This document shows, piece after piece, positions 8,576-49,643 of a DNA stretch of 64,000 nucleotides. Each line of letters begins with the position of its first letter. Within the stretch, counting starts at the first letter, position 1. The notes below the pieces were generated by a model, which saw only the letters and a program-made list of their open reading frames with translations, was not told where the DNA came from and searched no databases. This DNA is from Candidatus Omnitrophota bacterium (lineage in GTDB: Bacteria > Omnitrophota > Gorgyraeia > Zapsychrales > Aceulaceae): contig JAKQPK010000050.1 of the NCBI GenBank assembly GCA_029564765.1, positions 210,977-274,976 on the forward strand, given 5' to 3'. The position numbers were made by a program, and so were the translations under genes.

Positions 8576-11500
8576 CTATCCAGATGCTCTCACGACCTGC
8601 GCGCTATCTATCTGTGGCGTTTCAAATCCTAAGATCAAGGGAAGGTTATGCGCTGGGACCATCTGGATAATGATTGGCGCAAGGCTGTCAAAATGGATCC
8701 TTTCCATATCCTGGAATTGAACTGCCAAAGGAAGGCCCTGATCATCAGTTTTGATGTTCAGGTCTTGGTACAGGGTCGCGAAATCAATACCACCAGTAGG
8801 CGATAGATTATCCGCTCTTTTTTTCTGGAATTGCTTTTCTGCCTCAGCATAAGCCTCAGCATAACCATTCGCGAAAAGGGTCTGAGCTGTTTCATAAAGA
8901 TCAGCTAACGTTACCGAAAAGCCAAAAACAGACTCGATGATCTGCGTGGCATCTTCACCTTTGTACTGCCGTGCCATCACAGCATCTAAAACTACTCGCT
9001 GCCTTCCATCTTCACCCGCTTTAAAACCAGCACTATACAACCCTAAGCGGCTTCCCGCAAAACTAGATGAACCCATCAAAGCCACTAAGCTTTCAACAAT
9101 TTGCTCTTTCACAGTAGAGGAAGCGACTCCGCCTTGATCAGGTATCAAATTTCCAGCAACAGGAACAATTTTTCCTGTTAAAGGATGAACATAGAAAACA
9201 AGCTCAGTATCTTTATTCTGTGGAGGCAGACCTCTTGCCTGATGAGCAAGATCGCCAATATAACTTTCCAAAGAAGTGTCAACATAAAAAGGAATACCTG
9301 CCTTTTTCGCGGCTGTAGCCAAGATCATGACAGGACGTATCAGTTGATATTTTTGATCTTTTTCAGTGATATCATTGCCATTAATATTATTTCTCTCAAG
9401 CGCCATCAAATCGGAGGTAAATCGCAACGGATTCAAAAGAGATATCTCAGAAATATTGGCTTGCGCGTTTAGGATTTCATTAATCTCATAAAGATTAGCA
9501 GCAACTTCAACATCCACAGAAAGAGGAATATTAAGCCCGATCTCGCTCATAAGGCTTTTTACCTGATCGATCTCTTTAAAACTTCTCACAACCCTTAGCT
9601 GCAACACAATGCCTTTCTGGCCATTTACATCATCGACCAAGCGCTTGATAGCAGAAAGTTGTGCCCTTAAAAAATCTCGATCATTGCTTAAAGATTTAAC
9701 AAGGCCATGGACCCCATATTCCGGGTTGGCTTCACTTGGTTCATATAGCTCACCAAAAAGCAATTCTCGATATTCATTCGAGAAAAGAGCGTCCGTTGTA
9801 ATGATAAGCCGCTTTCCTTCCGTCTTTGCCTGAGAGAAAGATTTTCCAAGCGCCTCCAGAAGTCCACGCTCGTAAAACTTCATTCCGATCCCAGGTTCAT
9901 CAAGGCGCTCAACATATCCTTGATCACGCATAGAACGACGGATCTCCGTATACACTTTCCTCTCCTCGGCAGATAATGGCTGGTTTTTGAGAACCCTGGG
10001 AAGAAGGATTTCATCGTAGGACTTCAAGGCCTTATAATGAAATCCTAAAGTTAGACCAAAATCCGTCCCTATCTTGAATTGAGAATCCTCAAAAAGCTTC
10101 ACATCCGCAACGGCCTGTGGATCGATCTCAAAATCAAATCCGATCGCTTGCTGGGCTTCCGCAGGGATCTCAACGTCCTGACGGGCAAGGTTTTCCACGC
10201 CAAGCTTGATCGATTCTGGCGTCATGGAAACAGCTTCGTAACCTTCTTGCGCAAGAATCACTCCATAATTTTCCTGCCCCTTAACAGATGGCGCATTACC
10301 GCAAAAAGCATTCTTAATTTTGTTAACCGAATTGCGGAAGATCGCGTTAAATTTTTTCGTGATCTTTGGCATGCGACCATTCCAGCGCAAAATAGAAAGA
10401 CTATAATCCGTAACTACTTCTTTTAAGGACGCATTGCTCGTATTTCGATCCACTCTGGCCAATGTTTGCAAACCGTCATTGCCGCCAGTCGAGGTAAAAA
10501 AGTCAACGCTCCCAGCCTTTTTCCCTGAGCGCTGCTCAAAGATCGTGACTGCCGCCAAAAAATCCTCAATGTTAATCGAATTGGTAGGAAGCTCTGTCAT
10601 GATACCTACCTTAATATTGTCATCGATCAAGCCTTCTTCATCAAGGATCTCCAAAAATTTGACAACATCTATGGGCCTTCTGACAACAGGCGCGAAAATC
10701 CCAAACTTTGCTTTTTTTGTGTCAATGGCCTTTTTGATCGCTTCAAGCTGCCAGCGCAACGTCTGAGGATTCTTGAACATTAGATCCAACCCTCGAAAAC
10801 CTTTCATGGGATTTGCTTCACGATTAATGTACTCTTCCGCGCCATAAACATTCTGATATTCATCGCTTTTGCGGTCATCGAGTCGAATATAGTGACGTTT
10901 ATCCAAAAGCTTAACGATATCTGAAACGATCTGGGCGTCAGATCCATCCCTTATGCCACCTTCGGCGGCTTGTGCCAACTCGCTGAAAATGCTCTCAAGC
11001 TCTCGCAATGGAAAAATTTCACCGATGCCCTGCCGATAATAATTTTTAACAATATCTAACACCTTAACGCGAAGCTCGGCGTCCACAATGGTCTGAGCAT
11101 GTATCAAAACCCGCTTTAAAGGTGGGACTGTTGTAATGGATTTTGTCAATATAGATTCTGAAAGGACAGAAATATAAAAATCTTCAGCAGAATTATACCC
11201 TTCGATCGCCTTCTCAAGAAAGGAGATCTTTTCAGAATCACTAACGCGATCGAGGACCGGACCTTCATGCGGTTGCCGTTTTTCTTTCTTGACCATATTA
11301 TCATACGCCAGAAGAAGATCAGGATAGATGCCGATATCGTTTGTCAGCGTCAGCTCTTGACGATCAAGTCCTATGCCGTAAAAATCGATCATTAAGCGCA
11401 GAGGTGCTACTTTCAGGGCAGATGGCGGTGTGGCCGCGAAAACACCCACTCTTGCTTTGGTGCGCGGAAGGTCGATCGGACGAAAATCCTTGCCTTCAAC

Positions 11501-14500
11501 CTGCAAAACATAATCAGTGCCTAATAATATTTTTCCGCGGTTGGCGTCAATGGTCACCTTTACTCCATTAGGCAAAGCGTCCTGCAACTCTTCAAATGTC
11601 GCGTTAGAAACACCAGTGATCGCGACCAACCCATATTCTGAGGCAACGATCATCGTGTGCGAATTAGGCCCACCCTTAAGAGCCAAAATGCCCTTTGCCG
11701 CGATCATCGCCGAATTCATGTCAGGATCGCTTTGTTCAGCGAACATGATCTTTCCGATCGTCTGTGCCAGCGTGTCCGGTCTCTTGTCTAAGACCCAAAA
11801 GACCTGGCCTTGCGCGACCCCGCCTGTCTTGGCGATAAAATTAAAAGGCAAAACCTTTCCCTGGGCTTGTGCTTGCTGGAACGATTTATCCGTAACAAGG
11901 ATCTGTTTCATGAAGATCTTATGCGGATCACGGCGCGACCAAACCGTTTCGGGTCTGGCTTGAGTGCTGACGATCATCCAATCATATCGCGGAAAACCGC
12001 GCTCATCTAAAAGGGCTTTACCATTCTCATCCTTTAGCGTGATCATGTTCCCCTGAGCATCCCTTTTGATACGCAAAGCCCCCTCGAGATCAACGTAACC
12101 ACCGTAAAATTCATGCAAAGACCTAAAATAATCTGCGATCTTCCTTATAACCTCTTTGTCCGTGATCGAAAATTCTTGCTTGACGTCATCAGGGATCTCG
12201 ACTTCGATCTTACCCAACCCATCAGGTGTTTCAACGATCATGTGTGATCGTAAACCTCTTTTTCTGTTGAGTGGCTCGCCATCATACATCATGAAGAACT
12301 GACTTCCGGTCTCGCGTCCAGAAACGAGCATCTCTCCTTGCCCTTCTGTAGCCGATAGCGTCATTACAGGGAAACCTGTTTCGCGATCGACCGAAAAACC
12401 AATAAAACTTATCCCAGATAAAAACATTTCCTGGAATAACGTGCTGATCTCCACATGCTCATCAAAAGTAGGTAAACCAAAATCAAAACGATAATCAACA
12501 GCGCGCTTATTGAACAATGACGCTTGATTGAAGATCCAATTAGTAATGATAAAATCAAGCCCTTCAGGATCCTTTTTGGTTGCAAATGGCGTCACAAAGA
12601 TATATGTGTCCTGACGGCCAGCGAACGACGCGGCCTCGCTGTCTTCACCGACAGCTGAAGAACGGATCGCCAAAACAAGCTTATGAAGCGGGATACCGAT
12701 CCTCTGGGCAAGCTTTCGAAGATTACTTTTCATCTCTTCTTCGACAGCTCGGGGAACGATCATGGCTCGCCCGCCAATCAACAACTTACCAGAGATCATT
12801 GCTGTGATCTTTTCGTATTCAAGCTGTTTTCCCTGCAGCTGCTCCTCAAGCTGGGAGATCTTTTTGTTGATATCTACCTGATCTTCTTGCCCTTTTTTCT
12901 GGATCTCCAGCTCGGCGATCTCTTGAGCCAACTCTGTTTTCTTTTCCTTGATCAGCCGAACTTCTCGATCAAGATGATCACCCTGGGCTTTAAAATAATC
13001 TCTCAAGTTTTCATATGATCCGCTCTGTAGATCATCCAAAATAGACCTCATGACCGACAAAGTATCCTGGATCTGAGAAAAAACGCCCTCTCCTTTTTTT
13101 GTTTCAACAGCGACCCGCAAAAGAGAAAGATCTTTTGTGAGCTGATCGACCTCTTCTTCTGAAAGGCTTTGGCCAAGCGCAAGCTTCGGATGATCATCGC
13201 GATAGCGTATGATCTGCTTGATCAAGCGATCAAGGTGGGCCACGTACGCCTTCGTTGAATTACTGACAAAAAGATTTTGAAATGTTTCCCCGGCAGAAGC
13301 AAAATTAGGAAGCGTCACGATATCAGGGATGAACCCCATTTCTCCTGTATGTGCTGTCTTGCCTCCAAAGCCAACCTCATCCTGACGCTCAGCTTCGATA
13401 TCCCACACCGTAATACGGTCCTTAAAAGCGGGATCCTTGGTATATTCTTTGTGCAAGCTATAAACAAGGTTCTTCTGATCGCTTGCTTTCTGAGCTTCAT
13501 CTGCTCCAACGATCAGTTTTGTATTCGGATCAAGCTTCGCCTTGATATTCGCGATGGGATCCTCGATAGACTCCTCAGAAACCCTAACAATATTAGAGTG
13601 CTGCCGGTAAAACCTATCCAGAAGTTCTTGGGCCTTTTGTTCAGAGATCTTGCCGTATATCAAAAACTCATCGGTGAGCTTTTCCACAAGAACACGCTTA
13701 TCAAGTATCTTTCCTCGATGCAGCATATCCGAAACAAAAAGAATAATATCTGAATCGTTCAAGAAGTAAGGATCAAAAGCGCCTTCAAGCGTATCATTAC
13801 GAATGACCTTGTTCTTGATCTGATACATTGCCTTCACATCGTCCAATCGCGAGCCTTGCGGGATCAAAAGACTTTTCTTGTTGGCTCCGATAAGGATCTC
13901 CAGGTCCTTGATGCTGATATCACGCAAAACATCTTGCTGCATGATCTGAGCAAGCAAGCCAGCGATAAAGGACATCGTGATCTTCTTGCTTCCGGTCTGA
14001 AAAAGATAGTCTAAAAACTGGGTATTGATCGTGACCTTATTATTGGCAACATCAACATCCGCATACTCACCTTTTGTTTGTCCAACAAAGAATTGGACTT
14101 GGTCCATATAGCTGGCTAACAAACGCAATATTTTGTATTCTTGTTTTTCTCCGCCATAAAAAGAAAAAAAGTTCTTGGTCAAAGGGTACAGTTTGTCGTA
14201 TTTGCCAAAAAACATTTGTCCAGGCTCAAGATCACGATGGCCTGGAAATTTTTCTTTTTTGGAAAGAGCGATCGCTGAGGACATAGGAGCCGACACAAAG
14301 CCCTCATCCTTCGGAAGCTGGATGAAATCAACCGCCAGATCAGCATCATCAACGATACTCAGCTTCCAACTGACATCATGTATGCCCTTGGAAGTGCTGA
14401 CAAGCAAACCGTCGTAAGAGATCTTTACTTCTGAAATGTATTTTTTCAGGTTCTGATCAAGTCTTTGATAAGGATGCCATCCGTAATCTGTCCCTGGAGC

Positions 14501-16129
14501 ATGGCCAAGCATGGCCAAAACTTCTTTAGGTTTTTGCCCGATGGCCTGATGGATAAGGTCAAGATTGCTCTCCAAAGATCTTTTTGCGTCTAAATACGGG
14601 ATCTTAATCGCTGAGCTCAGCGATGATGATGTGCGTGTTTTTCGCTGGTAAACATAGACGATCCAACGGTCTGTGGGATTCTTTAAAGCCTTGTAGTACC
14701 CTCGAGGGGCGATCGCAACATAGCGTTGATCACCTGCGATCATGATGACAGGACTTTTAGGTGCGTCACCGGTATCAACATCAACACTCTTGTGAGCATA
14801 CTTTTCAACAAGGTAATTCTTAACTTGCTCTTGATTCCATATGTTGGCACCGTCCTCAAGAATGAAATGCCAACTCTTGCGCTCCCACTGCCCAGAAGAC
14901 CTCTCAAGAGGCGAGCTATTGCTTTTTTTATCTGTAGATAGGGCTGCCGTAATGCGCGTATTATCCCCACCGCGGACAATATTGTTCTGCTGCTGCGGGC
15001 TTGTGGATGTGATCTCCTCAAGATTCTCTGCGATCTTCGTCAAGACATCAATGCCGCCGGAGAAATATTTTCTTGGAATATGTCTTTTGGTGTGATCATC
15101 ATATTCCGCGCGAATAAAATTGTAGACGCCCTGTTTATAGGCTAAAAGATAGGACTCGTAGATCTTTTGTTTGATCTCTTTATCCTCAAGATCAATACCG
15201 GCGACCTTGGATCGATCGACGTAGATCTTTCCTAAAAGACTCTCTTTCAAGTTCTTCTTAAACCACATGCCTAAGACAAGAGCGTTGTAGGCTTGACGCA
15301 AAGACGCAAAATTCTTTCCCGTATTGACCTCTTTTTCAAGCTCTGGGATAACGATGTCGCGGATAATGGAAGAAGCGATTGAGCTTGTTGAGCTTGTTGC
15401 GTTTGTTGGGTTGGACGAACTCAAAGAACCCGATGAACTCAATAAACTCGATGAACCGTTCGAACGCGACAGCGCGAGGTAATCTTCTTCCAACATGACC
15501 TTTAACGATGCCTCAGCAACAAATGCCATATTGCCATGACGATAAACAACAACTTTATCCGGCATGATCCATACCTTATTAAAAGTGTCTACCGGGATCT
15601 CAGTGGTCTGGTATATTGCGTAAGCCTTTTGGTAAACCTTGTCCCAGAATTTCTTTCCAAGATCGGTCTGCGGGTGGATCAAGGAGGCGGTCAGTTGTTT
15701 TAAAATGTAATCTTGCGCTAGCAAGTCTCGCCCCAGATCGGTCTGCGCTAAGGCATCAGGAATGATGCGGTCCTGTTCGAAGGGAGAAAGGTTGACCCAC
15801 AGATCTTTCTCGGGGATCGTTAGCGATGCCAAGAAATACTTGATCAGCTTCTCTGATTCCTGCTTTAACGCATCACCTGCAAGATCCTCATCGCCATCAT
15901 TGATGATAAAATCGAACTTAAAAGGATTGTCGGGATAAACTTCGAGGCCTACCATCATCGCAGGATAAAATACCGGCGTTGTCGAAAGAATGGCGCCGGG
16001 CTGCGGCAATCCTAAAGCTTGGGCAAATCCAGGTGAAGGGACAATAAGATTGATCAAAAAACAGATCGAAACAAAACAACGAACAACTCGAGAGGATGCC
16101 GTTGTGGCATTCTTTTTGAAGGTGAGCAT
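8576..16129 (-). CDS. Giant secreted multidomain protein (2517 aa): signal peptide, shared N-module, PEP-synthase/PPDK-type phosphotransferase core, shared C-module
   Basis: Signal peptide MLTFKKNATTASSRVVRCFVSICFLINLIVPSPGFAQA. The N-module (about aa 40-400) is about 50% identical to that of the 33540-39197 protein. Coiled coil ELAQEIAELEIQKKGQEDQ... PPDK_N/PEPS ATP-grasp signature AIRSSAVGEDSEAASFAGRQDTY. Swivel phospho-His signature GGPNSHTMIVASEYGLVAITGV. PEP-utilizer TIM-barrel-like VDFFTSTGGNDGLQT. Ser-rich linkers. The C-terminal ~60 aa are shared with the paralog. Confidence 0.85.
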   Translation of the reverse strand: MLTFKKNATTASSRVVRCFVSICFLINLIVPSPGFAQALGLPQPGAILSTTPVFYPAMMVGLEVYPDNPFKFDFIINDGDEDLAGDALKQESEKLIKYFLASLTIPEKDLWVNLSPFEQDRIIPDALAQTDLGRDLLAQDYILKQLTASLIHPQTDLGKKFWDKVYQKAYAIYQTTEIPVDTFNKVWIMPDKVVVYRHGNMAFVAEASLKVMLEEDYLALSRSNGSSSLLSSSGSLSSSNPTNATSSTSSIASSIIRDIVIPELEKEVNTGKNFASLRQAYNALVLGMWFKKNLKESLLGKIYVDRSKVAGIDLEDKEIKQKIYESYLLAYKQGVYNFIRAEYDDHTKRHIPRKYFSGGIDVLTKIAENLEEITSTSPQQQNNIVRGGDNTRITAALSTDKKSNSSPLERSSGQWERKSWHFILEDGANIWNQEQVKNYLVEKYAHKSVDVDTGDAPKSPVIMIAGDQRYVAIAPRGYYKALKNPTDRWIVYVYQRKTRTSSSLSSAIKIPYLDAKRSLESNLDLIHQAIGQKPKEVLAMLGHAPGTDYGWHPYQRLDQNLKKYISEVKISYDGLLVSTSKGIHDVSWKLSIVDDADLAVDFIQLPKDEGFVSAPMSSAIALSKKEKFPGHRDLEPGQMFFGKYDKLYPLTKNFFSFYGGEKQEYKILRLLASYMDQVQFFVGQTKGEYADVDVANNKVTINTQFLDYLFQTGSKKITMSFIAGLLAQIMQQDVLRDISIKDLEILIGANKKSLLIPQGSRLDDVKAMYQIKNKVIRNDTLEGAFDPYFLNDSDIILFVSDMLHRGKILDKRVLVEKLTDEFLIYGKISEQKAQELLDRFYRQHSNIVRVSEESIEDPIANIKAKLDPNTKLIVGADEAQKASDQKNLVYSLHKEYTKDPAFKDRITVWDIEAERQDEVGFGGKTAHTGEMGFIPDIVTLPNFASAGETFQNLFVSNSTKAYVAHLDRLIKQIIRYRDDHPKLALGQSLSEEEVDQLTKDLSLLRVAVETKKGEGVFSQIQDTLSVMRSILDDLQSGSYENLRDYFKAQGDHLDREVRLIKEKKTELAQEIAELEIQKKGQEDQVDINKKISQLEEQLQGKQLEYEKITAMISGKLLIGGRAMIVPRAVEEEMKSNLRKLAQRIGIPLHKLVLAIRSSAVGEDSEAASFAGRQDTYIFVTPFATKKDPEGLDFIITNWIFNQASLFNKRAVDYRFDFGLPTFDEHVEISTLFQEMFLSGISFIGFSVDRETGFPVMTLSATEGQGEMLVSGRETGSQFFMMYDGEPLNRKRGLRSHMIVETPDGLGKIEVEIPDDVKQEFSITDKEVIRKIADYFRSLHEFYGGYVDLEGALRIKRDAQGNMITLKDENGKALLDERGFPRYDWMIVSTQARPETVWSRRDPHKIFMKQILVTDKSFQQAQAQGKVLPFNFIAKTGGVAQGQVFWVLDKRPDTLAQTIGKIMFAEQSDPDMNSAMIAAKGILALKGGPNSHTMIVASEYGLVAITGVSNATFEELQDALPNGVKVTIDANRGKILLGTDYVLQVEGKDFRPIDLPRTKARVGVFAATPPSALKVAPLRLMIDFYGIGLDRQELTLTNDIGIYPDLLLAYDNMVKKEKRQPHEGPVLDRVSDSEKISFLEKAIEGYNSAEDFYISVLSESILTKSITTVPPLKRVLIHAQTIVDAELRVKVLDIVKNYYRQGIGEIFPLRELESIFSELAQAAEGGIRDGSDAQIVSDIVKLLDKRHYIRLDDRKSDEYQNVYGAEEYINREANPMKGFRGLDLMFKNPQTLRWQLEAIKKAIDTKKAKFGIFAPVVRRPIDVVKFLEILDEEGLIDDNIKVGIMTELPTNSINIEDFLAAVTIFEQRSGKKAGSVDFFTSTGGNDGLQTLARVDRNTSNASLKEVVTDYSLSILRWNGRMPKITKKFNAIFRNSVNKIKNAFCGNAPSVKGQENYGVILAQEGYEAVSMTPESIKLGVENLARQDVEIPAEAQQAIGFDFEIDPQAVADVKLFEDSQFKIGTDFGLTLGFHYKALKSYDEILLPRVLKNQPLSAEERKVYTEIRRSMRDQGYVERLDEPGIGMKFYERGLLEALGKSFSQAKTEGKRLIITTDALFSNEYRELLFGELYEPSEANPEYGVHGLVKSLSNDRDFLRAQLSAIKRLVDDVNGQKGIVLQLRVVRSFKEIDQVKSLMSEIGLNIPLSVDVEVAANLYEINEILNAQANISEISLLNPLRFTSDLMALERNNINGNDITEKDQKYQLIRPVMILATAAKKAGIPFYVDTSLESYIGDLAHQARGLPPQNKDTELVFYVHPLTGKIVPVAGNLIPDQGGVASSTVKEQIVESLVALMGSSSFAGSRLGLYSAGFKAGEDGRQRVVLDAVMARQYKGEDATQIIESVFGFSVTLADLYETAQTLFANGYAEAYAEAEKQFQKKRADNLSPTGGIDFATLYQDLNIKTDDQGLPLAVQFQDMERIHFDSLAPIIIQMVPAHNLPLILGFETPQIDSAQVVRASG

Positions 16130-16866: not shown

Positions 16867-17553
16867 TCACGCCGAAAAATTCTTTAAAAGAATAACTGCT
16901 TTAACAAAAAAGAAAGCGCTGGTTAGAAATAAAATGCCGGCAAAGGCTTGTCGGATCCTAACAAGCCAGGGTCCAGGCTTGGGCAAGCGCGCTAGCAAGC
17001 CGGTAAATGTTCCGATCAGGATCAATGAAAATCCAACGCCATAGGCAAAAACGAACAATAAACTTAGCCCGTGAAATAAATTCTTTTTTGAACCAACATA
17101 CAAAAGGATAGAGCCCAACAGAGGCGCTGTGCAAGGACCGATCGCAAAGCCAGAAACAAGGCCTGCAAAAAAGATCCCTACGATATTTCTTGGACGCAAA
17201 GATCCCTTAGCTCCTAAATGCAGGATGGGCAATGGAAGGATATCCGCCATAACAAGGCTGAAAAAAAGAAGAAGGAGCGAAACCGCGAAGAAAACATATG
17301 GATTGCTGTGAAGATGTCCGAATAATCGCCCTGTGAGAACCGCAAGGGCTCCCAAGGCGCTATACGACACAGCAGTCCCAAAGACATAAACGCAGGACAA
17401 AGAAAATCCAGCTAATTTTGTTCCGTGAATATTGGCGCGTCCGACTATAGAGGCGACGATAGGAATAAGCGGATAAACGCATGGCGTAAAGCTAACAGCA
17501 ACGCCAGCGGCAAAAGCGGCAAAATAATCATTGATATACTGTGCGACCATCAT
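16867..17553 (-). CDS. ccdA: Cytochrome c biogenesis / thiol-disulfide transporter CcdA (DsbD family)
   Basis: Polytopic membrane protein with the two conserved Cys motifs TPCVYPLIP and GPCTAPLLG. Confidence 0.8.
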   Translation of the reverse strand: MMVAQYINDYFAAFAAGVAVSFTPCVYPLIPIVASIVGRANIHGTKLAGFSLSCVYVFGTAVSYSALGALAVLTGRLFGHLHSNPYVFFAVSLLLLFFSLVMADILPLPILHLGAKGSLRPRNIVGIFFAGLVSGFAIGPCTAPLLGSILLYVGSKKNLFHGLSLLFVFAYGVGFSLILIGTFTGLLARLPKPGPWLVRIRQAFAGILFLTSAFFFVKAVILLKNFSA

Positions 17554-17581
17554 GTCCTTTGATAGGATCCTGAGCAGGTCT

Positions 17582-17620
17582 TAGCAAAAAGGGCGCCTTT
17601 TGATGATCAAAAGGCGCCCT
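17582..17620 (-). terminator. Intrinsic terminator of the PFOR gene
   Basis: AGGGCGCCUUUUGA / UCAAAAGGCGCCCU 14-bp stem, 3-nt loop (17590-17620), then UUUUUGCU on the minus strand. 17 nt downstream of the 17637 stop. Confidence 0.75.
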
Positions 17621-17636
17621 CGTCACATTCTCCTGC

Positions 17637-20600
17637 TTACGCCTTTTTCTTTGGCGCAAACGCTTCTGAAGCCAAGGCCTCATAAATAGCCCAGCGCTCG
17701 TTCACATCATTTTGCGCTTGCTCTAACAAAACTTTAGACTTCTCAGGGTTGCTAGCCGCCAAGGTCTTGAAACGTGTTTCCTTAAGCGCGTATTCAGCAA
17801 ATCCCATCTTTGGTGCCTGAGAATCCAGAACTAAAGGATTCTTACCTTCATCTTTAAACAATGGATTATATCTGAACAATGGCCAATAACCGCACGCGAC
17901 CGCGTCTTTTTGATAATCCAACCCTCGCCCCATGTTGATCCCGTGCGCGATACAATGGGAATACGCAATGATCAGCGATGGACCTGGATAATGTTCAGCC
18001 TCTAAAAATGATTTAACAGTATGCTCATCCCGCGCGCCGAGCGCGACATTGGCCACGTAAACATTACCATAGCTCATGATCATACGAGCAAGGTCTTTTT
18101 TAGGAGCAGGTTTTCCAGAAGCCGCGAATTTCGCGACAGCCCCGCGAGGAGTTGCTTTGGACATCTGTCCGCCGGTATTAGAATAAACCTCAGTGTCCAG
18201 GACCAAAACATTGACGTCAAAACCTGAGGCCAGAACATGATCAAGGCCGCCAAAGCCGATGTCATAAGCCCATCCATCACCACCCATGATCCAAACGCTT
18301 TTCTTGACCAACGTATCTACGATGCTCAAAAGCTGCTTCGCGTCGCTCGATGCGTCATTTTTGATCTTTTCCTTTAAGGTCTCAACGCGTTGACGCTGTT
18401 CAAAAATATCAGATTCTTCCACCTGCTTGGCTTCAACGATCGCCTGCGCAAGCTCTGTGCCGATCTTGCTTTCCAATCTTTTGACCAGCTCACAGGCGTA
18501 CTCTTGCTGCTTATTAAGCGCCAAACGAAAACCAAGGCCAAACTCAGCATTATCCTCAAAGAGCGAATTCGACCATGCCGGGCCTCGACCTTGTGCATTC
18601 TGCGCCCATGGCGTTGTTGGTAGATTGCCGCCGTAGATCGAGGTACAACCTGTAGCGTTAGCAACGACCATGCGGTCACCGAAAAGCTGTGACACAAGAC
18701 GAATATATGGTGTTTCTCCGCAACCACCGCACGCTCCTGAAAACTCAAACAACGGTTGTAAAAATTGAGAGCTGCGCACCGTTGGCTTAACCTTAGTACG
18801 ATCTAAAACAGGGATCGATGAGAAAAACTTCCAATTCTTAGCCTCTTCCTCCCTTAACGGGGGCTGAGGATGCATATTAATCGCTTTTTTGTTCGGATCT
18901 GCCTTGTCTTTCACAGGACATGTCGTCACGCACAAGCCGCATCCCGTACAATCCTCGACAGCGACTTGCAAAGTAAACTCCATCCCGCTGAGATCTTTAT
19001 CTTTAGCTGGAACATGCTTAAAGGCCGCAGGAGCGCCGGAAAGCACCTTTGGATCATAGGCCTTCGCGCGAATGACCGCGTGAGGGCATACGGTACTGCA
19101 CTTTCCGCACTGAATACAGATATCTTTTTCCCAGACAGGAACCTGTAGCGCGATGTTTCTTTTTTCCCATTGCGTTGTTCCTGTTGGAAAAGTTCCATCG
19201 CAAGGAAAAGCGCTTGTAGGAAGCTCATCACCGCAATTCGCCATGATCTTCGCGAGAACTTTTCTAACGAATTCCGGAGCTTCCTCTGAAACAACCGGCG
19301 GCATATCGATCATGCTTGTGACCTTATTGGGATATTCAACCTTATGTAGATTCTCAAGGGTCTTATCAACGGCAGCGAAATTCATTTTAACAACATCCGC
19401 GCCTTTCTTGCCATAGGCATGCTCGATCGATTTTTTAATCTCCGCGATCGCTTGTTCTCGAGGGAGAACGCCGGATATCGCGAAAAAGCATGTCTGCATG
19501 ATCGTGTTCACACGTCCACCCATACCGCTGGCTTCGGCCACCTTGTAACCATCAATGACATAAAACTGCAACTTCTTATTAATGATCTGCTGCTGGACTT
19601 GTTTTGGTAAATGGTCCCAAACCTCATCTTTTCCATAATAGCTATTCAACAAAAATACCCCATTATCATCAACATGGCGCAAGATATCATATTTCTCAAG
19701 GAACACAAATTGGTGACAAGCGAGAAAATTCGCGCGGGTGATCAAATACGGCGCGCGAATAGGATCAGGCCCAAAACGCAAATGGGATACCGTCATGCTT
19801 CCGGATTTCTTAGAATCATAAACAAAATACCCTTGCGCGTAATTAGGCGTGTTTTCCCCAATGATCTTAATGGACTGATGATTAGCGCCGACGGTTCCAT
19901 CTGAGCCAAGCCCGTAAAAAACCGCGCGTACACTTTTTGGGTTTTCGGTTGAAAATGATGGGTCAAATGAAAGAGATGTCTTAGTAACATCTTCTGTGAT
20001 GCCTACTGTAAAATGATTTTTCGGTTCTTTCTTTGCCATCTCATCAAAGACACCCTTGACCATCGCAGGGGTGAATTCTTTGGATGAAAGGCCGTAGCGA
20101 CCCCCGATCACCTTAGGAAGGCTGGCAAAATTTGAAGCGCCTTTCTCAAATAAAGCGTTCGTGACATCAAGATACATCGGCTCTCCGCCAGCACCAGGCT
20201 CTTTGCAGCGATCCAAGACTGCGATCGTTCGTGTTGTCTTTGGCAGGGCGTCAATAAACGCTTCAACAGCAAACGGACGATATAGGCGTACATTCAGAAC
20301 ACCGACCTTCTCACCTTTTTTCGTTAAGTGGTCCACTGTTTCTCTGCAGACTTCTGTCCCGGAACCCATCATAACGATCACGCGCTCAGCATCTAAAGCG
20401 CCGACATACTCAAAAAGCTTATATTGACGGCCTGTCAGCTTGGCAAATTTGTCCATAGCGCTTTGAACGATCGCTGGACACTTATCATAATACGCATTGA
20501 CGATCTCGCGAGCCTGGAAAAACACATCTGGATTCTGCGCAGTTCCGCGAATAACAGGATTGTCCGGAGAGAGAGCACGAGCGCGATGCGCAAAAACCTG

Positions 20601-21194: not shown

Positions 21195-21311
21195 TGCTTT
21201 CCTACCCTTTCTTAAATATCTGCCCTGGCAAAGTGATTTTGCGGGCATTGGTTCTATGATTTAATCCTGGTGATTGTCTTTGCAAATGCAGGTCTGTTAA
21301 AGAATTCTGAA

Positions 21312-33539: not shown

Positions 33540-36500
33540 TTATCGAGCAAGGCTCAGCCGTGGTTGGCTTTCTTGGCGAACACCGAGCAAAAGCGGAAGA
33601 TTTGTAACCGGCGCGATATTGATAATAACAGGATAGAGCCCATCAATCTCAATATTCTCAAAATTCTCAAGGTCAAATTGTATAGGGCTTGCGCCTCCCT
33701 GACGTTCAAGGTCGAAATGAGCAGGATTAAGATCGATACCGCCGACTTCGTTTGGCTTCACTTGAGCTTGTTCGTATCCAGTCCTAACATCCTTAAGAGA
33801 ATCAATAAGATCAGAATAAGAATCATACCCTAAAGCCCAAGCCAAAGCCTGTTTCTTGCTGCTTGAGAATTCCTCATTTTTAAATTCTAAGTAATTCTGG
33901 ATCACATCCCAAACAGCTTTCTTAGACTCAATGGTTAAGTACCGAAGTTGGACATCTTGTGTGATCGTCGCTTCACCTGCTGATCGATCGATCACGATTC
34001 CGCTGTCTTCGAATGTCTTTTTTGCAAAAATCAAATTAATACCACCAAAACCATTCAAAAGACGAACACGCGTCATCTGCCCCTCTCCGCCGGGATTCAC
34101 GAATATTCTTTGTGCCTGAGAACCGATCATTTTCCCGTCGCTCTCAAAAATCATCTTATACAAATTCTCTAAAGTGGTTACTGTGCCGTAAGCCTCTTTT
34201 ATGGCTGAATAATTTTTTGCAAGCCAGCCTTCAACATCAAAAAATGATCGACCATGTTCTTGTGCGATAGCCTGCAACGCAACATCTACTTCAATTCCTG
34301 GTCTAAGACGATCCATTCGTTCAACACTCGATGTAATTCTCAGCTTATCAGCCGCATCATTAACTGGTATAAAATCACGATATTTTTCAAGCCATTCCTT
34401 TGTTTTTTGGATAAAAGCCAAGGCTTCCCTTGCACCCATACCAGAAATAAGCCCGTTTTGAATCTTTTGAGAAATCGCATCCCACTGCTCCTTTATTTCG
34501 CCTTGAGATACAGCTGACGATACCGGACTCCCGTCAGGATTAAAAAGCTCTAGCTGTTCGCCTGCCTTCCTGAAGAATACTTTTTCTCCAGCCGCGAGCT
34601 TATTTAAAAGCGGCTGTGAGACCGTATAAACGCCATCGCCAGCAAGCTGCATCTTTACTTTGATGCTCTGCTGAAGGGCACGATACGCCCCTTGAACGAT
34701 ATCGTTGGTCAGTGTATTCTCGGGAAACACCCACATCTCAAGACTACTCGAAAAGAAATCCGCAGTCGTGATAACAAATTTTCCATCAGAGGCCTTGCGC
34801 GCTTGATATTTAAGACCCAAGGTTCTTGTAATATTTTCGTTGATCCCCTGAGCTGCTTTAAAATGCTCCATAATATTGCCGTTGGGCTCTTGATAGCGCT
34901 CGCTAAAGAAGACAACGATGTTGCTATTGTTTGTTGTGTCAACAACAGCCTTGAATTTCCAGATGCCGTCCTTGTCCAGTGTGGCTATCTTTTCGATCGT
35001 CTTGTCATTTAGCTCTAACGCCCTTCCATTTTCAAGCAAGACATCCTCTGTGAGATCGCGCGTTGAACGAGAAATGCGATCATTGAAATAAAGCGCATGC
35101 AGCGTTGGTATAAACTGCTTCTTTTCCTGAATAACCTTTTGGACTTCCTGATATATCCTAGCCTTATTCTTTTCAGGATATTGACGATCAAGCGCTAAGA
35201 TAATATTTTCCGCTGTTGGACGGGAAACCCTGATGCGTCCACCTTCTGTGATGATAAAATTTCGGAAAGCTGGAACATTCTCATAATATTCTTCAATCGT
35301 AAAGATGCCCTTCCAGAAAAAATCTTCTGGCAAATCCAGCTTGCTCCTGCTCTTAAACTGCAAAAGCTGTGTGTCAATAACATAAGCCCCATCGATCTCA
35401 ATAATTTCATGAGTAATGCCTAACTCTTCTTCGCGAATCCTGTCTGCATTGGGTGGAATGTATATCGTTTTTGGCTCAAAACCATAGTTGAGGCGCAAAT
35501 GGCTGCTGTTTTCCCAGATGCCCATGATCTCGTTGGTGGCTAAGGCGCACTGATTAGAATGCTTCGGATCGTACTTCTTGATGATCGACTCCGCCAAATT
35601 CTTTAATTCGGCTGGGATGCTCGAGGAAGAAGCCGAAACATACAGATCTCCGACACCATAATCAACAACCCCACCATCAATAGAAATGCCTAAAATATCT
35701 CGTTGGCTGACTTTCTTAAAACCGCTCAATCCTTCAAAATACGCCTGATCGACCTTGGCTGGAGCATAATAAATCTTGCCATCTGATCTCATCTTTTTTC
35801 TTAGATTTCCACTATTGTGCCATTTCTCAAAAAAGTTCGCCACCTGCGGCGAAGGGTTGATCACGGACAAATAGTCGATCGCGCCATCAGGAATATGGTA
35901 AAGAAGATCGGCAAACTCCCCTTTAAGGATCACAAGATTCTCTTTTTCTTCTTTAAGACCATCTAATTTTTTTTGGTCCCATAGTTCTCGGTAATAATAC
36001 CCCGACTCTGCAAATGAATCAAAACCAATAACACCTATATCCCTATTTTGACCAGCCACAGCCAAAGGAAATCGTCCTTGGCCTGTTCCAGCATCTACAT
36101 AGATCTGGCCATGCTTCTGCAGGATCGAAACAGCCTTTGCGACCGCCTCCTGAGAATTCCCTTGCCTGACAAGATATTGTTCAAAATTCCTGATTTCTGA
36201 TGAAATAGCTGAAGAGACATCGCTATCAGCGTAACGTTTCTTTCCATCCTGGGACAGGACGACCATTCTCGTTCCATCTGCAGGTCGGATAGGAAGTAGA
36301 GAGTCGAAAGTCGCGTTGATCAGCATGTAATCTTCTTCGGGATAAAACGCTTTAATATTTTTCATAAAAAGATTAAATTTGTTTTGCCGCTCTTCTTGTG
36401 TCATGCGGCTATAAGCAACCCACTCGAGGATGTTGGAGACATGGACCACAGAAGCTTGTCCTGAAATTTGCGCTTTTTGTAAGAATTCTCTTATCATTTC

Positions 36501-39197
36501 TTCGCTTGACTCGCCAAACCAATCGAGTGTTAAGAAATGGATCTTGCCTGTTTGGACCATATTTTTTATTTTTAAGAAATTTTCCTCGCTTCCCAACCAG
36601 CTAAAAATATCTTGGGATTCTTCTATGGCTTTTCTAACGACAACCGACCAATTCAACATTCCACTTTTATTTTGAAAGACCCCATCCCAAAAGTTCTTCG
36701 CGCGCTCATTGCTCTCGAGGTCCGGTCTTACCTCGATCATTTTCTGCCAGATCTCGTTTTTACGCGCATAGCTGTTTGCGACGCCCGAAAGACCCAAGGA
36801 AACATCTTCTTGTGGCAAATATCCCTGTAAGAGATTTAAATACTCTTGTCGATTTCCTGAAATAGAAATGAGAGCGGCTTTGATGGGCAAAAATGCCTCT
36901 GTTACAAAAGGATTAAAATCAACCAAAACACCATCACTAAAATCACCGTTGGCAATCCAAGAAAAATCCTGCCCCGTGCCAACATAAGCACCCTGAGCAC
37001 TTTTAACTTCTTGATATGTCGGACCCCACCCCTCATTCGAACTTGACCATTGCAAAGCTGAACGCATGTCAAGTAAAGCCTGATCTTCAGCTCCCGAACG
37101 TTGTCCGCTTGGAGAAATTGATAGGCTTGGTATATTCCTAACGGAAACCATCTTCTCGTCTGTTGGAACGTAACTGACAGACTTAAAGGTATAACTTCTT
37201 CGCCCATTATCAATTGGCAAGGTGATCGATCTTTCGCTACCCGGTTTCATGTTCAAGGTGATCTCTTGATTGCCGCGACGCACTGCAGAAACGAATAAGA
37301 GACGCTCTCCAGTTTCAGCACCATTAACGATAAGATTCTTTACTCTCAGATTAATATCGATCCCTGCTTTCCGCATCTGTTCAAGGATCACAATATAATC
37401 TGTCTCATTGCGCAACCCCTGTGCGTCATTAAAAAACAAGAGCTGGCTGACAAAGGTTCCTCCATCGTTTAGCTGATGAAAAAGATTGAGCCACGCGGCA
37501 AGCGGATCAGAAAGATACTGCAAAACAAAAAAAGAAGTGATCAGGTCCATCTTGACGGGCTTTCCGTCTTTGTCATATATTCTTTTTGTCGTTATGTCGT
37601 TTTCAGGGCCTTTAAAAAAATTAACCTTGGGGGCCATCAATTCATACATCTCTTTGCCATCTGGCCCATATTCATTCAAGAACCCTTCGAGCGCTTGAGG
37701 ACCCATATCCTTAATTTGAGATTCTTTTTTGTCGATCCCATAAGCATCGATCAAGCTGCCATACGAATACTTAATATTGATCAACGACATCCCCAGCCCG
37801 CATCCGGCATCTAGGATCTTCGCCGGGACTTTTGTTCTGCTAGCCTTTGCGGCTAGGTTCTCAACGATCTTTCCTAAGGGATTTTCTCCTTGAACATTCT
37901 GGATCTCCACCCCAAAAAGATTAAGAATACCATCGTAGCGATAATAATCACGGTAATTAGTGTGGTTGCTCTCATCGGACAATTGGGAAGTTTTTTGTAA
38001 TGGCGATGCGGAGGAGCTCTGAAGCCCACTTGTGACAACTCGCAAAGATGATGAGCCGAGACTGCCAAGGCCATCTGTTTTTTCAATGATGCCGCTACCG
38101 TCAAAATGCGTTTTCATTTCAATGCCGCCGGAAAAATATTTTCTCGGGATCGCCTTGCGAATATAAGGGTCGAATTCAACCTTCATGATATCGCAAACAC
38201 CTTTTTTATAGGCAGCCAGATACTGTGCGTAGATCTTCTGGTGAACATCCTTGTCGTCAACATCAACACCCTTGACCTTGCTTTGATCACTGTACTTTTT
38301 ATTGATGATCGAATCCTTGAGCGCCTGCTTAAACCACGCCGCCAGAATAAAAGAGCTGTAAACTTGGCGCAACACAGCAAAATTCTTACCCTCATTGACC
38401 TCTTTCTCAAGCTCCGGCAACAACACTTCCCGAGCGATCTGAGAAGAAAGGGAGTTTTTAGCCGTTAGTATTTGGTCGTTAGTATTTTGTAAAGGCTTTG
38501 CACTAGATAGGCTATCGACTTGTTGCTTTGCCTGTAAAGCAACATAATCCTCCTCCAGCATGACCTTCAGCTTCGATTCGATAATAAAAGCTTTATCATG
38601 ATTCTCGTAGACCTTCGCCTTGGCAGGAACGATCCATACCTTATTGAACGTATTCGCCGGAATATTAGTCGTCCCAAAAAGCTCGTAGGATCTTTTATAA
38701 ACCTTATCCCAAAATACCTTTCCTGTCTTGCTCTCAGGATGCGTTAATGATGCCGTTATCTGCTTTAAAAGATAGTCCTGAGCTAAAAGGTCTCGCCCCA
38801 TTTCAGTTTCGCCAAAATCACCAGCAATAATGCGTTCTTTTTCGTAAGGGCTGAGATTAACCCATAAATTCTTCTCAGGAACGGTCAAAGACGCCAAAAA
38901 ATACCGAACAAGCTTCTGGGCCTCAATATTAAAGGCCTCGCCTTCCAGGCCCGAATCTCCCACATCCACGATAAAATCGAATTGAAAAGGGTTGTCGGGA
39001 TAGGCCCTGATCCCGCGAAGCATCGCAGGCATAAAGCTGTTGCTTAACAAAACAGGTGTTCCAGGCGCTGGCAAGCCTAAAAGCCCTTGGGCTAAGGCCT
39101 GAGGAGGAAAGACCGTTGTTAGCAAGAACACGCCTGCGACAAGCCAAGACAGGCTCTTTAATATACGCTTTTTTATTCGGCTATTTATCGTTTTCAT
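33540..39197 (-). CDS. Giant secreted multidomain protein (1885 aa): signal peptide, shared N-module, two class I SAM-methyltransferase domains, shared C-module
   Basis: Signal peptide MKTINSRIKKRILKSLSWLVAGVFLLTTVFPPQALA. N-module paralogous to the 8576-16129 protein (LTVPEKNLWVNLSPYEKERII, GRDLLAQDYLLKQITASLTHP, IPRKYFSGGIE). MTase motif I twice (KILDAGCGLGMSL, IYVDAGTGQGRF). C-terminal GGIDL...PVIINIAPVTNLPLLLGV matches the paralog's GGIDF...PIIIQMVPAHNLPLILGF. Confidence 0.85.
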   Translation of the reverse strand: MKTINSRIKKRILKSLSWLVAGVFLLTTVFPPQALAQGLLGLPAPGTPVLLSNSFMPAMLRGIRAYPDNPFQFDFIVDVGDSGLEGEAFNIEAQKLVRYFLASLTVPEKNLWVNLSPYEKERIIAGDFGETEMGRDLLAQDYLLKQITASLTHPESKTGKVFWDKVYKRSYELFGTTNIPANTFNKVWIVPAKAKVYENHDKAFIIESKLKVMLEEDYVALQAKQQVDSLSSAKPLQNTNDQILTAKNSLSSQIAREVLLPELEKEVNEGKNFAVLRQVYSSFILAAWFKQALKDSIINKKYSDQSKVKGVDVDDKDVHQKIYAQYLAAYKKGVCDIMKVEFDPYIRKAIPRKYFSGGIEMKTHFDGSGIIEKTDGLGSLGSSSLRVVTSGLQSSSASPLQKTSQLSDESNHTNYRDYYRYDGILNLFGVEIQNVQGENPLGKIVENLAAKASRTKVPAKILDAGCGLGMSLINIKYSYGSLIDAYGIDKKESQIKDMGPQALEGFLNEYGPDGKEMYELMAPKVNFFKGPENDITTKRIYDKDGKPVKMDLITSFFVLQYLSDPLAAWLNLFHQLNDGGTFVSQLLFFNDAQGLRNETDYIVILEQMRKAGIDINLRVKNLIVNGAETGERLLFVSAVRRGNQEITLNMKPGSERSITLPIDNGRRSYTFKSVSYVPTDEKMVSVRNIPSLSISPSGQRSGAEDQALLDMRSALQWSSSNEGWGPTYQEVKSAQGAYVGTGQDFSWIANGDFSDGVLVDFNPFVTEAFLPIKAALISISGNRQEYLNLLQGYLPQEDVSLGLSGVANSYARKNEIWQKMIEVRPDLESNERAKNFWDGVFQNKSGMLNWSVVVRKAIEESQDIFSWLGSEENFLKIKNMVQTGKIHFLTLDWFGESSEEMIREFLQKAQISGQASVVHVSNILEWVAYSRMTQEERQNKFNLFMKNIKAFYPEEDYMLINATFDSLLPIRPADGTRMVVLSQDGKKRYADSDVSSAISSEIRNFEQYLVRQGNSQEAVAKAVSILQKHGQIYVDAGTGQGRFPLAVAGQNRDIGVIGFDSFAESGYYYRELWDQKKLDGLKEEKENLVILKGEFADLLYHIPDGAIDYLSVINPSPQVANFFEKWHNSGNLRKKMRSDGKIYYAPAKVDQAYFEGLSGFKKVSQRDILGISIDGGVVDYGVGDLYVSASSSSIPAELKNLAESIIKKYDPKHSNQCALATNEIMGIWENSSHLRLNYGFEPKTIYIPPNADRIREEELGITHEIIEIDGAYVIDTQLLQFKSRSKLDLPEDFFWKGIFTIEEYYENVPAFRNFIITEGGRIRVSRPTAENIILALDRQYPEKNKARIYQEVQKVIQEKKQFIPTLHALYFNDRISRSTRDLTEDVLLENGRALELNDKTIEKIATLDKDGIWKFKAVVDTTNNSNIVVFFSERYQEPNGNIMEHFKAAQGINENITRTLGLKYQARKASDGKFVITTADFFSSSLEMWVFPENTLTNDIVQGAYRALQQSIKVKMQLAGDGVYTVSQPLLNKLAAGEKVFFRKAGEQLELFNPDGSPVSSAVSQGEIKEQWDAISQKIQNGLISGMGAREALAFIQKTKEWLEKYRDFIPVNDAADKLRITSSVERMDRLRPGIEVDVALQAIAQEHGRSFFDVEGWLAKNYSAIKEAYGTVTTLENLYKMIFESDGKMIGSQAQRIFVNPGGEGQMTRVRLLNGFGGINLIFAKKTFEDSGIVIDRSAGEATITQDVQLRYLTIESKKAVWDVIQNYLEFKNEEFSSSKKQALAWALGYDSYSDLIDSLKDVRTGYEQAQVKPNEVGGIDLNPAHFDLERQGGASPIQFDLENFENIEIDGLYPVIINIAPVTNLPLLLGVRQESQPRLSLAR

Positions 39198-45892: not shown

Positions 45893-46876
45893 TTATTTCT
45901 TAAGCGTGTGACCGAAACCTATGCCGATCTTGCGACCAGCGGCGAGGATCATTTTTTCTACGCACTTGCGGCAAGTGGAAGCATCTTCAGATAAGCATAT
46001 TTTATCTGGATAGATCTCGTAGAATTTACGATATTGCATGGGTGTGATGTTAGGCATGATAATATTAGCGCCGCAGGCAAGGGCTTTTTGTCGTCCCTGC
46101 GCGTCAAGCGTGCCGACAGCGGTCGTCGCCGGAATGTGGGCATCACAGGTGATGATGCGGGTTAATGCGATAACCTTGAGCACTGTCTCGATTTTGACAT
46201 CCTTATCTCCTGCCAAAGGCGTATTTGGATGCGGCAAAAATGGTCCGATGCCGATCATATCAAGCTCAAGGGACCTAAAAAGCAAAATATCGTCTGCAAT
46301 ACTTTCAGGTGTCTGCCCTGGCAAGCCTACCATGATCCCAGAACCAACCTGATAACCTAACTCTTTAAGCCAATGAAGGCATTGCAAACGTTCGCTAAAG
46401 AGATGTCCAGGCCTTAAACGAGCGTACAACTTCTCATCTGAGGTTTCAAAGCGTAAAAGATAGCGGTCGGCCCCCGCTTCTTTAAGCTTTCGATAATCCT
46501 CTTTGGGGCGCTCGCCAATGGACAATGTGATCGCGATATTGAATTTCTTGATCTCATGGATCATGCGACAGAAATCATCCACATGATAAAAAAGATCTTC
46601 TCCGGACTGCAAAACGATCGTCGGGATCCCAAGTTCAACCGCCCTGCGTGCGTTTAAAACGATCTCATCAAACGTCATACGATAACGCGCAACCTTTTCG
46701 TTGCCTTGGCGCAGTCCGCAATACAAACAATTTTGGCCGCAATAATTTGAAAACTCAATGATGCCGCGCAAATGGACCGCTTCGCCACAGTATTGTTTGC
46801 GGACTTGGTCAGCGCGCGCAAAAAGATCTGAAGTTTCTACTGATCGAAACTGTTCAACAATTCGTTCTTTATTCAT
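45893..46876 (-). CDS. hydE: [FeFe]-hydrogenase maturase HydE (radical SAM, BioB-like)
   Basis: SNYCGQNCLYCGLRQGN CxxxCxxC motif; 327 aa. Clustered with hydG and hydF. Confidence 0.8.
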   Translation of the reverse strand: MNKERIVEQFRSVETSDLFARADQVRKQYCGEAVHLRGIIEFSNYCGQNCLYCGLRQGNEKVARYRMTFDEIVLNARRAVELGIPTIVLQSGEDLFYHVDDFCRMIHEIKKFNIAITLSIGERPKEDYRKLKEAGADRYLLRFETSDEKLYARLRPGHLFSERLQCLHWLKELGYQVGSGIMVGLPGQTPESIADDILLFRSLELDMIGIGPFLPHPNTPLAGDKDVKIETVLKVIALTRIITCDAHIPATTAVGTLDAQGRQKALACGANIIMPNITPMQYRKFYEIYPDKICLSEDASTCRKCVEKMILAAGRKIGIGFGHTLKK

Positions 46877-46882
46877 GATCGA

Positions 46883-48370: not shown

Positions 48371-48374
48371 TTTA

Positions 48375-49628: not shown

Positions 49629-49643
49629 AATTATCTTTTCTTT

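Follow-up and report, generated by a model that had tools for sequence, protein, structure and literature searches.

A PEP synthase-type dikinase module as probable cargo of a signal-bearing scaffold protein family in Omnitrophota

Results

We analysed one giant gene in a 64,000-nucleotide stretch of a Candidatus Omnitrophota contig (JAKQPK010000050.1, positions 210,977 to 274,976; hereafter the window). The open reading frame (ORF) at 8576..16129 (-) is intact, begins with ATG and encodes 2,517 amino acids plus a stop, and its product matches exactly the sequence of GenBank HOD11672.1, 'PEP/pyruvate-binding domain-containing protein [Candidatus Omnitrophota bacterium]'. Our analysis suggests, with a probability of roughly 0.7, that residues ~901-1995 form a complete, highly diverged and catalytically competent enzyme of the phosphoenolpyruvate (PEP) synthase (pyruvate, water dikinase) type, which is carried as cargo in an Omnitrophota-specific scaffold. 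As judged from its active-site residues, the substrate pair is most likely pyruvate and PEP, with phosphoryl transfer via phospho-His1491.

A complete dikinase active site

The first-pass annotation had proposed a complete triad of ATP-grasp, swivelling phospho-histidine and TIM-barrel parts, and this is borne out, in the order of PEP synthase (PpsA) and pyruvate, phosphate dikinase (PPDK), by Pfam, by matches to structures in the PDB and by alignment. Pfam PPDK_N matches residues 1123-1366 (E 2.9e-32; 112.7 bits, gathering cut-off 27), PEP-utilizers matches 1459-1532 (E 2.7e-13; 49.7 bits, cut-off 23.1) and PEP-utilizers_C matches 1740-1976 (E 9.6e-23; 81.2 bits, cut-off 22.8). The similarity to dikinase domains is thus real and far above chance. 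All three motif strings quoted in the first reading lie within the protein: AIRSSAVGEDSEAASFAGRQDTY at residues 1154-1176 (window 12602-12670), GGPNSHTMIVASEYGLVAITGV at 1486-1507 (window 11609-11674) and VDFFTSTGGNDGLQT at 1875-1889 (window 10463-10507). Since the first ATP-grasp strand, GGKTAHTGEM (922-931), precedes the Pfam PPDK_N match by ~200 residues, we place the start of the module near residue 901, not 1123.

We then compared individual residues, using a MAFFT E-INS-i alignment of E. coli PpsA (ppsA, b1702), this module and the modules of 15 other Omnitrophota giants. All functionally assigned PpsA positions, verified in the alignment, are kept in this protein. The ATP-grasp site comprises K924 (GGK), R1156 (AIRSS), E1349 (DLEG), and Q1390 and R1392 (QARPET). 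The catalytic phospho-carrier is H1491 in GGPNSH (GGRTCH in E. coli PpsA), kept in 16/16 aligned Omnitrophota giants. The catalytic barrel (TIM1) holds R1590 and E1592 (GIGLDRQE), R1749 (IRLDD), GFRG at 1777-1780, E1846 (MTELP), N1884-D1885 (GGND) and C1943 (FCGNAPS). Every catalytic column is kept in this protein and in the 15 others, which belong to two sub-families and span 33-96% identity. The catalytic His claimed in the first reading is therefore confirmed as H1491. The two findings that would have spoken against the claim, a missing His or ATP-grasp Lys and similarity over one sub-domain only, were not made: H1491 and K924 are both present. The pyruvate/PEP-binding Arg and Cys residues, proposed there as a means of telling a canonical barrel from a pocket like that of rifampicin phosphotransferase (RPH), are retained as R1590, R1749 and C1943, and the barrel is canonical.

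By homology to PpsA and PPDK, the ATP-grasp domain (K924, R1156, E1349, Q1390, R1392) would bind Mg-ATP and pass phosphoryl groups to His1491, and the swivelling His domain would then swing to TIM1. There, R1590, R1749, E1846, N1884-D1885 and C1943 would bind pyruvate and Mg2+, and pyruvate would be converted to PEP; in the reverse direction, PEP, AMP and Pi would yield ATP. The roles of these residues (substrate, Mg2+, proton-donor Cys) come from the PPDK, PpsA and Enzyme I literature, and our comparison concerns their presence.

The module also differs from E. coli PpsA within its domains. GGK and xxRSS are separated by ~230 aa here vs ~100 aa in E. coli PpsA, and the helical sub-domain of the ATP-grasp domain is ~130 residues longer; this sub-domain contains a coiled-coil-like stretch (~1040-1110), with weak coiled-coil-type Pfam matches at 1005-1113. 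TIM1 carries a ~90-aa insertion between its first two Arg. PSRP/PDRP control acts on a regulatory Thr near the catalytic His (PMC2817694). The position of this Thr, two residues before that His, is occupied by Asn1489 in this protein, by Asn in the ortholog group and by Leu in homolog P0006; a second sub-family of giants bearing the PEP synthase (PPS) module keeps the Thr. The replacement of Thr by Asn implies that PSRP/DUF299-type control is probably absent for this enzyme.

As the first reading had described, the 2,517-aa protein has a signal-peptide-like N-terminus, a Ser-rich stretch (222-254) and the coiled-coil-like stretch. Its features are listed below from the N-terminus, with window coordinates, strand and basis; P-numbers denote homologs.

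16019..16129 (-): signal-peptide-like N-terminus, residues 1-37; sequence, hydrophobicity scan, family conservation
15053..16018 (-): N-terminal domain (N-dom), residues 38-359; LPxPG through WVNLSPYE, DYxLKQ to PRKYFSGG
14258..15052 (-): poorly conserved spacer region, residues 360-624; matched in P0001 and P0007 only, among 120 homologs
13430..14257 (-): conserved pre-ATP-grasp region, residues 625-900; P0001-P0006, 32-96% identity
11930..13429 (-): ATP-grasp nucleotide-binding domain, residues 901-1400; Pfam PPDK_N, E. coli PpsA alignment
12770..13252 (-): enlarged helical/coiled-coil sub-domain within the ATP-grasp domain, residues ~960-1120; alignment, weak Pfam coiled-coil-type matches
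11495..11842 (-): swivelling phospho-histidine domain, residues 1430-1545; Pfam PEP-utilizers, alignment
10145..11452 (-): catalytic PEP/pyruvate-binding TIM barrel (TIM1), residues 1560-1995; Pfam PEP-utilizers_C, alignment
9230..10072 (-): degenerate second barrel (TIM2), residues ~2020-2300; BLASTP against E. coli PpsA and the protein's own TIM1
8795..9229 (-): linker region, residues 2301-2445; matches P0001, P0002, P0007-P0010
8621..8794 (-): C-terminal motif (C motif), residues 2446-2503, with a short variable tail after it; GGIDF, ~35 aa, PIIIQMVPAHNLPLILGF

A 158-aa ORF also lies antisense inside the giant gene (window 13277-13753, +). It is most likely a spurious reading frame; an antisense ORF cluster of similar kind occurs at 15 related loci.

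PEP synthases are the closest relatives

Among PDB entries, the PEP synthases 2OLS (6e-39), 9DAE (3.5e-38) and 8A8E (3.6e-31) match the protein in several stretches that jointly span all three sub-domains. The best NCBIfam matches are likewise PEP synthase models, NF005057 (314.8 bits) and TIGR01418 (288.8 bits). When the module was searched alone, its closest non-giant relatives were ordinary proteins of ~770-970 aa, most of them near 790, with 25-30% identity and up to 99% module coverage; those bearing a source name are PEP synthases / pyruvate, water dikinases.

The same three-domain architecture is found in PPDK, a reversible, PPi-forming enzyme that could run in the glycolytic, ATP-forming direction in a fermentative anaerobe. 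The window is that of a fermentative organism, with pyruvate:ferredoxin oxidoreductase (PFOR), FeFe hydrogenase and anaerobic ribonucleotide reductase (RNR), and West-Roberts et al. (2023, bioRxiv 10.1101/2023.11.21.568195) name such domains of Omnitrophota giants 'pyruvate-diphosphate kinase domains'. We nevertheless consider a PPDK unlikely. The PPDK model TIGR01828 scores 48.4 bits (cut-off 843.45) vs 315 for PpsA, PPDK structures match the His domain only (E about 1e-4), and where a source names the closest full-length relatives, it annotates them as water dikinases.

The first-pass annotation had called the module 'rifampicin-phosphotransferase-type' and had left its substrate open, with a macromolecule as one candidate. 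A triad that phosphorylates something other than pyruvate might act on a small molecule (as RPH and PigC/RedH-type enzymes do), a protein (like Enzyme I) or a polymer (like glucan, water dikinase). Such an acceptor would fit the strong divergence of the module, which is 25-30% identical to PpsA and falls under the PpsA equivalog cut-offs, as well as its setting in a giant protein with an export-like signal, and the extra conserved regions (625-900 and TIM2) could bind another substrate. We find it improbable, however, since the PEP/pyruvate-site residues, including the proton-donor Cys and the two Arg, are kept in both giant sub-families; the Mg2+ residues are kept as well, and the whole set recurs in the 15 related giants. 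With the pyruvate/PEP pocket intact, a macromolecule or drug as substrate is not favoured. Models of RPH, PigC and RedH match the ATP-grasp and His parts only (63-99 bits vs cut-offs of 999-1350); the RPH models NF041857 and NF000283 score 99.1 vs 999 and 60.9 vs 1700 bits, and the RPH structures 5FBS/5HV1 match in two stretches only (E about 3e-16). An RPH-like or PigC-like identity, for which only these two parts match and which the canonical PEP barrel contradicts, was rejected. As for Enzyme I, the sole model match (TIGR01417, 49.7 bits vs a cut-off of 341.7) has its best stretch in the barrel, at 1768-1902, and the protein has an ATP-grasp domain besides.

A degenerate second barrel

TIM2 is a diverged copy of the PEP-utilizers_C barrel, detected by BLASTP against both E. 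coli PpsA 520-661 (E 5e-13) and the protein's own TIM1 (E 4e-9). It lacks the two substrate Arg as well as the Asn-Asp pair and the Cys, a loss seen in 13/13 sequences aligned, and judged by these residues TIM2 is catalytically dead. With phmmer, a second barrel region was found in most of 19 PPS-bearing giants; the match was weak in three (E >= 0.01) and there was none in two. Because PpsA, PPDK and Enzyme I dimerise through this barrel, we read TIM2 as a built-in partner barrel, which by this analogy may stand in for the partner of the usual homodimer (an intramolecular pseudo-dimer). The fused dead barrel offers a neat, testable case of a pseudo-enzyme copy that possibly replaces a homodimer partner.

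The other conserved addition, region 625-900 (~275 aa), is specific to the ortholog group and contains the motifs GKYDKLYPL, NDTxEGA and LHRGKxL. A profile of this region returned nothing significant against PDB and Pfam, with CheY-like noise below threshold (E about 0.01-0.4).

Purifying selection on the catalytic domains

We estimated the ratio of non-synonymous to synonymous substitution rates (dN/dS) by the Nei-Gojobori method against ortholog P0001, which is 96% identical and lies at a locus (L084) with the gene order of the window. The ratio is 0.13 for the whole gene, 0.06 for the ATP-grasp domain, 0 for the His domain (0 non-synonymous and 6 synonymous changes) and 0.08 for TIM1. It rises to 0.13 in TIM2, where purifying selection persists, to 0.20 in N-dom and to 0.24 in the spacer (360-624), which is among the two highest of the long segments; the linker (2301-2445) has 0 non-synonymous changes. 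Strong purifying selection together with intact active sites favours a working enzyme. That the module is a non-catalytic relic, a structural filler in a surface or coat protein, might be suggested by the demonstrably degenerate TIM2 and by the many family members without recognisable domains, but is hardly credible when all catalytic residues are kept in 16 sequences of 33-96% identity and dN/dS in the catalytic domains (0-0.08) is lower than in the scaffold.

A scaffold family with interchangeable cargo

The dikinase module is cargo in a scaffold that consists of a signal peptidase I-like signal, the 320-aa N-dom, variable cargo and the 58-aa C motif. In a search with the whole protein, the homologs with a source name were Omnitrophota giants. 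P0001-P0006 match this protein co-linearly across the PPS region; the remaining homologs match only ~14-17% of the query (45-59% identity) and contain other enzymes. By local BLAST, the N-terminal part with N-dom (residues 1 to ~360) is present in 120/120 homologs and the last ~75 residues in 105/120, at their own C-termini; the PPS module is present in only 18/120. Elsewhere in the family, the cargo includes PGK, triose-phosphate isomerase, PGI, PGM, aldolases, GAPDH, FBPase, hexokinase and isocitrate lyase/malate synthase, as well as HMGL-like, UDPGP, acyl-CoA dehydrogenases, UbiB-type kinases with M48 peptidase, methyltransferases, Ser/Thr kinase with PP2C, response regulators, helix-turn-helix (HTH) domains and HEAT repeats. 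Many members have no recognisable domains. The first reading had missed both TIM2 and this interchangeability of cargo in a very large Omnitrophota family, the latter being the more remarkable of the two.

Modularity is visible within the single genome at hand. A paralogue in the window, 'giant 2' (33540..39197 (-), 1,885 aa), has an N-dom of 52% identity over 347 aa and the C motif, and it carries S-adenosylmethionine (SAM)-methyltransferase domains and DUF7790. The same caps thus enclose other cargo.

The invariant motifs of N-dom in family alignments include WVNLSP, DYxLKQ and YFSGG, and the Ser-rich stretch at 222-254 is a variable, low-confidence loop inside the domain. N-dom has no sequence relative in Pfam, NCBIfam or PDB, and no NCBIfam model of any kind, the sorting-signal models of that library included, matches N-dom or the C motif. 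The C motif has the consensus GGIDLNPxxLDLQIKRDGNGVPLPLxxQPIExMxIxGFxPVIINIxPxxNLPxLLG, and GGI[DN][LFM] occurs within the last 180 aa of 114/121 family proteins. An autonomous C-motif domain was rejected, AlphaFold2 (AF2) giving a predicted TM-score (pTM) of 0.28 and almost no secondary structure. Our protein has both family hallmarks, a single N-terminal copy of the signal-like helix plus N-dom (1-359) and the C motif (2446-2503). Gly-Gly bounds both scaffold elements: N-dom ends in PRKYFSGG, with G358 and G359 invariant, and the C motif starts with GGI(D/N). C39-type peptidases cut double-glycine sites, and by analogy the Gly-Gly boundaries are a possible processing signal.

A profile search with N-dom among 1.84 billion representatives yielded 8,360 proteins, of which 6,707 reach E<=1e-30. 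Among the best 150 matches, which range from 420 to 5,312 aa, the domain lies at or near the N-terminus (one starts at residue 122). We also asked whether the giants are concatenations of N-dom, with one unit to each transmembrane (TM) helix, and rejected this because 146/150 best matches show one N-terminal stretch, and multi-copy proteins would have outscored single-copy matches. In GTDB genomes there are at least 594 N-dom loci, several genomes giving more than one. All 80 loci that we retrieved come from metagenome-assembled genomes. Most of these bear an Omnitrophota/Omnitrophica label and about one in three the label 'uncultured Planctomycetales bacterium', which is probably placeholder or mis-assigned taxonomy; among the loci retrieved the scaffold is confined to Omnitrophota. 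Two to three N-dom paralogues lie within 21 kb in 20/77 loci. Clustering of the ORFs at the 80 loci found no recurrent sortase, transporter or peptidase neighbour. Recurrence was limited to response-regulator-type proteins of a generic kind, to what is probably an antisense artefact, and to trp genes, which may recur because the loci concerned are orthologous.

A possible export signal and candidate locations

The N-terminus carries K5, K6, R14 and R17, a 13-residue hydrophobic core (18-30), P31, P33 and G34, and A35-Q-A37 followed by L38; F24, P31 and 'AQ' of this region are conserved family-wide. The segment gives the only Kyte-Doolittle window-19 peak above 1.6 in the protein (1.89), and the next-highest value is that of the Pro-rich C motif (1.45). 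Residues 1-37 would fit a cleavable Sec signal, with the cleavage site predicted from the -3/-1 rule, which would ordinarily mean export of the enzyme. The cargo of the family is overwhelmingly of cytoplasmic type, namely ATP-, NAD-, CoA-, SAM- or FAD-dependent enzymes together with HTH and receiver domains. The scaffold most likely sets the placement or tethering of the enzyme, and there are at least three candidate destinations: the cell surface or a coat, some compartment, or the prey to which it would be delivered.

A similar paradox has been met before. For giants of at least 30,000 aa, missed TM helices were suspected (West-Roberts et al. 2023), and 'multi-enzyme metabolic' giants were read as membrane-associated in a 2026 complete-genome preprint (bioRxiv 10.64898/2026.06.07.730766). 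In giants of 30,000-150,000 aa, the paradox of an 'extracellular metabolic enzyme' could be blamed on unreliable TM prediction. The 2.5-kaa protein is a clean case, with one signal-like segment and an intact ATP-dependent site, and it sharpens the paradox without solving it.

Discussion

Several points weigh against a PEP synthase at work in this protein. The scores miss the PEP synthase equivalog cut-offs (314.8 vs 598 bits for NF005057, 288.8 vs 739.75 for TIGR01418), and at this level of sequence similarity orthology to PpsA is not established. Water dikinase (PpsA) and phosphate dikinase (PPDK) chemistry are inseparable from sequence alone, and the pseudo-dimer role of TIM2 is argued by analogy. 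Taken at face value, the signal would place an enzyme that needs ATP beyond the cytoplasm, in surroundings where neither ATP nor pyruvate is normally available; something is missing either from the reading of the topology or from the physiological picture.

A bolder reading, which we offer tentatively and regard as possible, is that the PEP synthase is one cargo of an undescribed, Omnitrophota-wide placement system (at least 8,360 clusters) that extends active, ATP-dependent metabolism past the cytoplasmic membrane. The system would comprise the Sec-like signal, the 320-aa N-dom and the 58-aa C-terminal peptide, bounded by Gly-Gly, around interchangeable enzymes of cytoplasmic type, among them most glycolytic enzymes, those of the glyoxylate pathway, kinases and methyltransferases, as well as response regulators. 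Were this true, the enzymes might end up in a surface coat, in a membrane-bounded compartment, or in the prey or host cell of these ultra-small epibionts. The family is huge and sharply defined, and its caps are in no domain database that we searched, which makes the question of location experimentally tractable and raises that of whether the caps serve as targeting, tethering or processing signals.

Part of this picture is already known. The dikinase family is established, automatic annotation had flagged this protein, and PPDK-type domains were noted in Omnitrophota giants in 2023. PPDK_N is among the 20 commonest domains of such giants, C39 domains were reported near the N-termini of much larger ones, and N-terminal C39/S8 peptidase domains are common in the giants of West-Roberts et al. 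(2023). In targeted text searches, the N-dom/C-motif family did not appear in the N-terminal-domain passages of that study or of the 2026 preprint, nor did targeted term searches of the Antarctic-lake Omnitrophota paper and Seymour 2023 find a description of the N-dom family. A literature search for WVNLSPYE, PRKYFSGG and GGIDL/GGIDF returned nothing relevant. In the searchable literature we found no residue-level case for an intact catalytic site under selection in such a module, nor the fused dead barrel, the Thr-to-Asn change or the N-dom/C-motif scaffold family. The enzyme chemistry itself is ordinary, that of a PpsA-type dikinase; what merits further work is the scaffold family.

Genomic neighbourhood

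The window as a whole is unremarkable chromosomal DNA of a fermentative anaerobe, with genes for PFOR, DsbD, anaerobic RNR and its activase, rubrerythrin, ferritin, FeFe hydrogenase, HydE/F/G-type maturases, a NuoF-like subunit, an extracytoplasmic function (ECF) sigma factor and von Willebrand factor A (VWA) proteins, and no mobile-element signal was found around the dikinase giant gene within it. PFOR (1,203 aa) and a DsbD-type membrane protein lie directly upstream of this gene (window 16867-21248, -). The PFOR-DsbD-giant order is kept only at the locus of the 96% ortholog (L084, 4937-9264), not around the 58% ortholog P0003 (L003), and an operon link to PFOR was rejected on this ground. 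PFOR as a pyruvate-producing or -consuming neighbour of the dikinase giant is suggestive, although the order is not conserved.

An FeFe-hydrogenase cluster occupies 45893-55979 (-) of the window. It contains a HydA-like protein (592 aa), a 2Fe-2S thioredoxin-like subunit, radical-SAM and GTPase maturases (HydE/G/F-like) and a 1,045-aa NuoF-like/pyridine-nucleotide-disulphide-oxidoreductase fusion, and it is ordinary for a fermentative Omnitrophota genome.

Comparison with known systems

PEP synthase (E. coli PpsA; 2OLS, 9DAE, 8A8E) resembles the module in its three domains, their order and its nucleotide, phospho-His and PEP/pyruvate residues, and is the best match in all sequence searches. 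PpsA is a soluble enzyme of ~790 aa, whereas the module forms part of a 2,517-aa chain that bears an export-like signal, and it differs further in ~130 extra coiled-coil residues, ~90 extra barrel residues, Asn in place of Thr and a dead barrel fused C-terminally. PPDK (1DIK/1KBL; TIGR01828) has the same architecture and swivelling-domain mechanism, and its catalytic residue set maps one-to-one, with sequence likeness detectable in the His domain only. RPH (5FBS, 5HV1; NF041857) has homologous ATP-grasp and swivelling His domains; it consists further of a rifampicin-binding domain, with its His domain C-terminal and without a TIM barrel, whereas a canonical PEP/pyruvate barrel follows the His domain here. 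Enzyme I of the phosphotransferase system (PTS) is defined by the absence of an ATP-grasp domain, which our protein has.

'Archaeovorins' and the 'multi-enzyme metabolic cluster' giants (bioRxiv 10.64898/2026.06.07.730766) come from the same phylum, are predicted to lie outside the membrane and have glycolytic/PPDK-type domains in very long proteins. Archaeovorins are discussed at sizes of at least 30,000 aa, with numerous TM helices and commonly with C39/S8 domains; this protein is 2,517 aa long, shows a single hydrophobic segment and lacks peptidase domains, so that phylum and PPDK-type domains are all it has in common with them. Unlike the giants of either group, it has one enzyme module and a single N-terminal hydrophobic segment.

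The scaffold is formally like the cargo of dedicated sorting systems, an analogy of architecture. Cargo of the type IX secretion system (T9SS CTD), of PEP-CTERM/exosortase and of GlyGly-CTERM/rhombosortase likewise combines a signal, variable domains and a conserved C-terminal element, and LapA-type adhesins of the type I secretion system (T1SS), which pair an N-terminal retention module with a C-terminal signal, share the formal architecture only. Unlike the -CTERM signals, the C motif is built without the layout of a TM helix followed by a basic tail.

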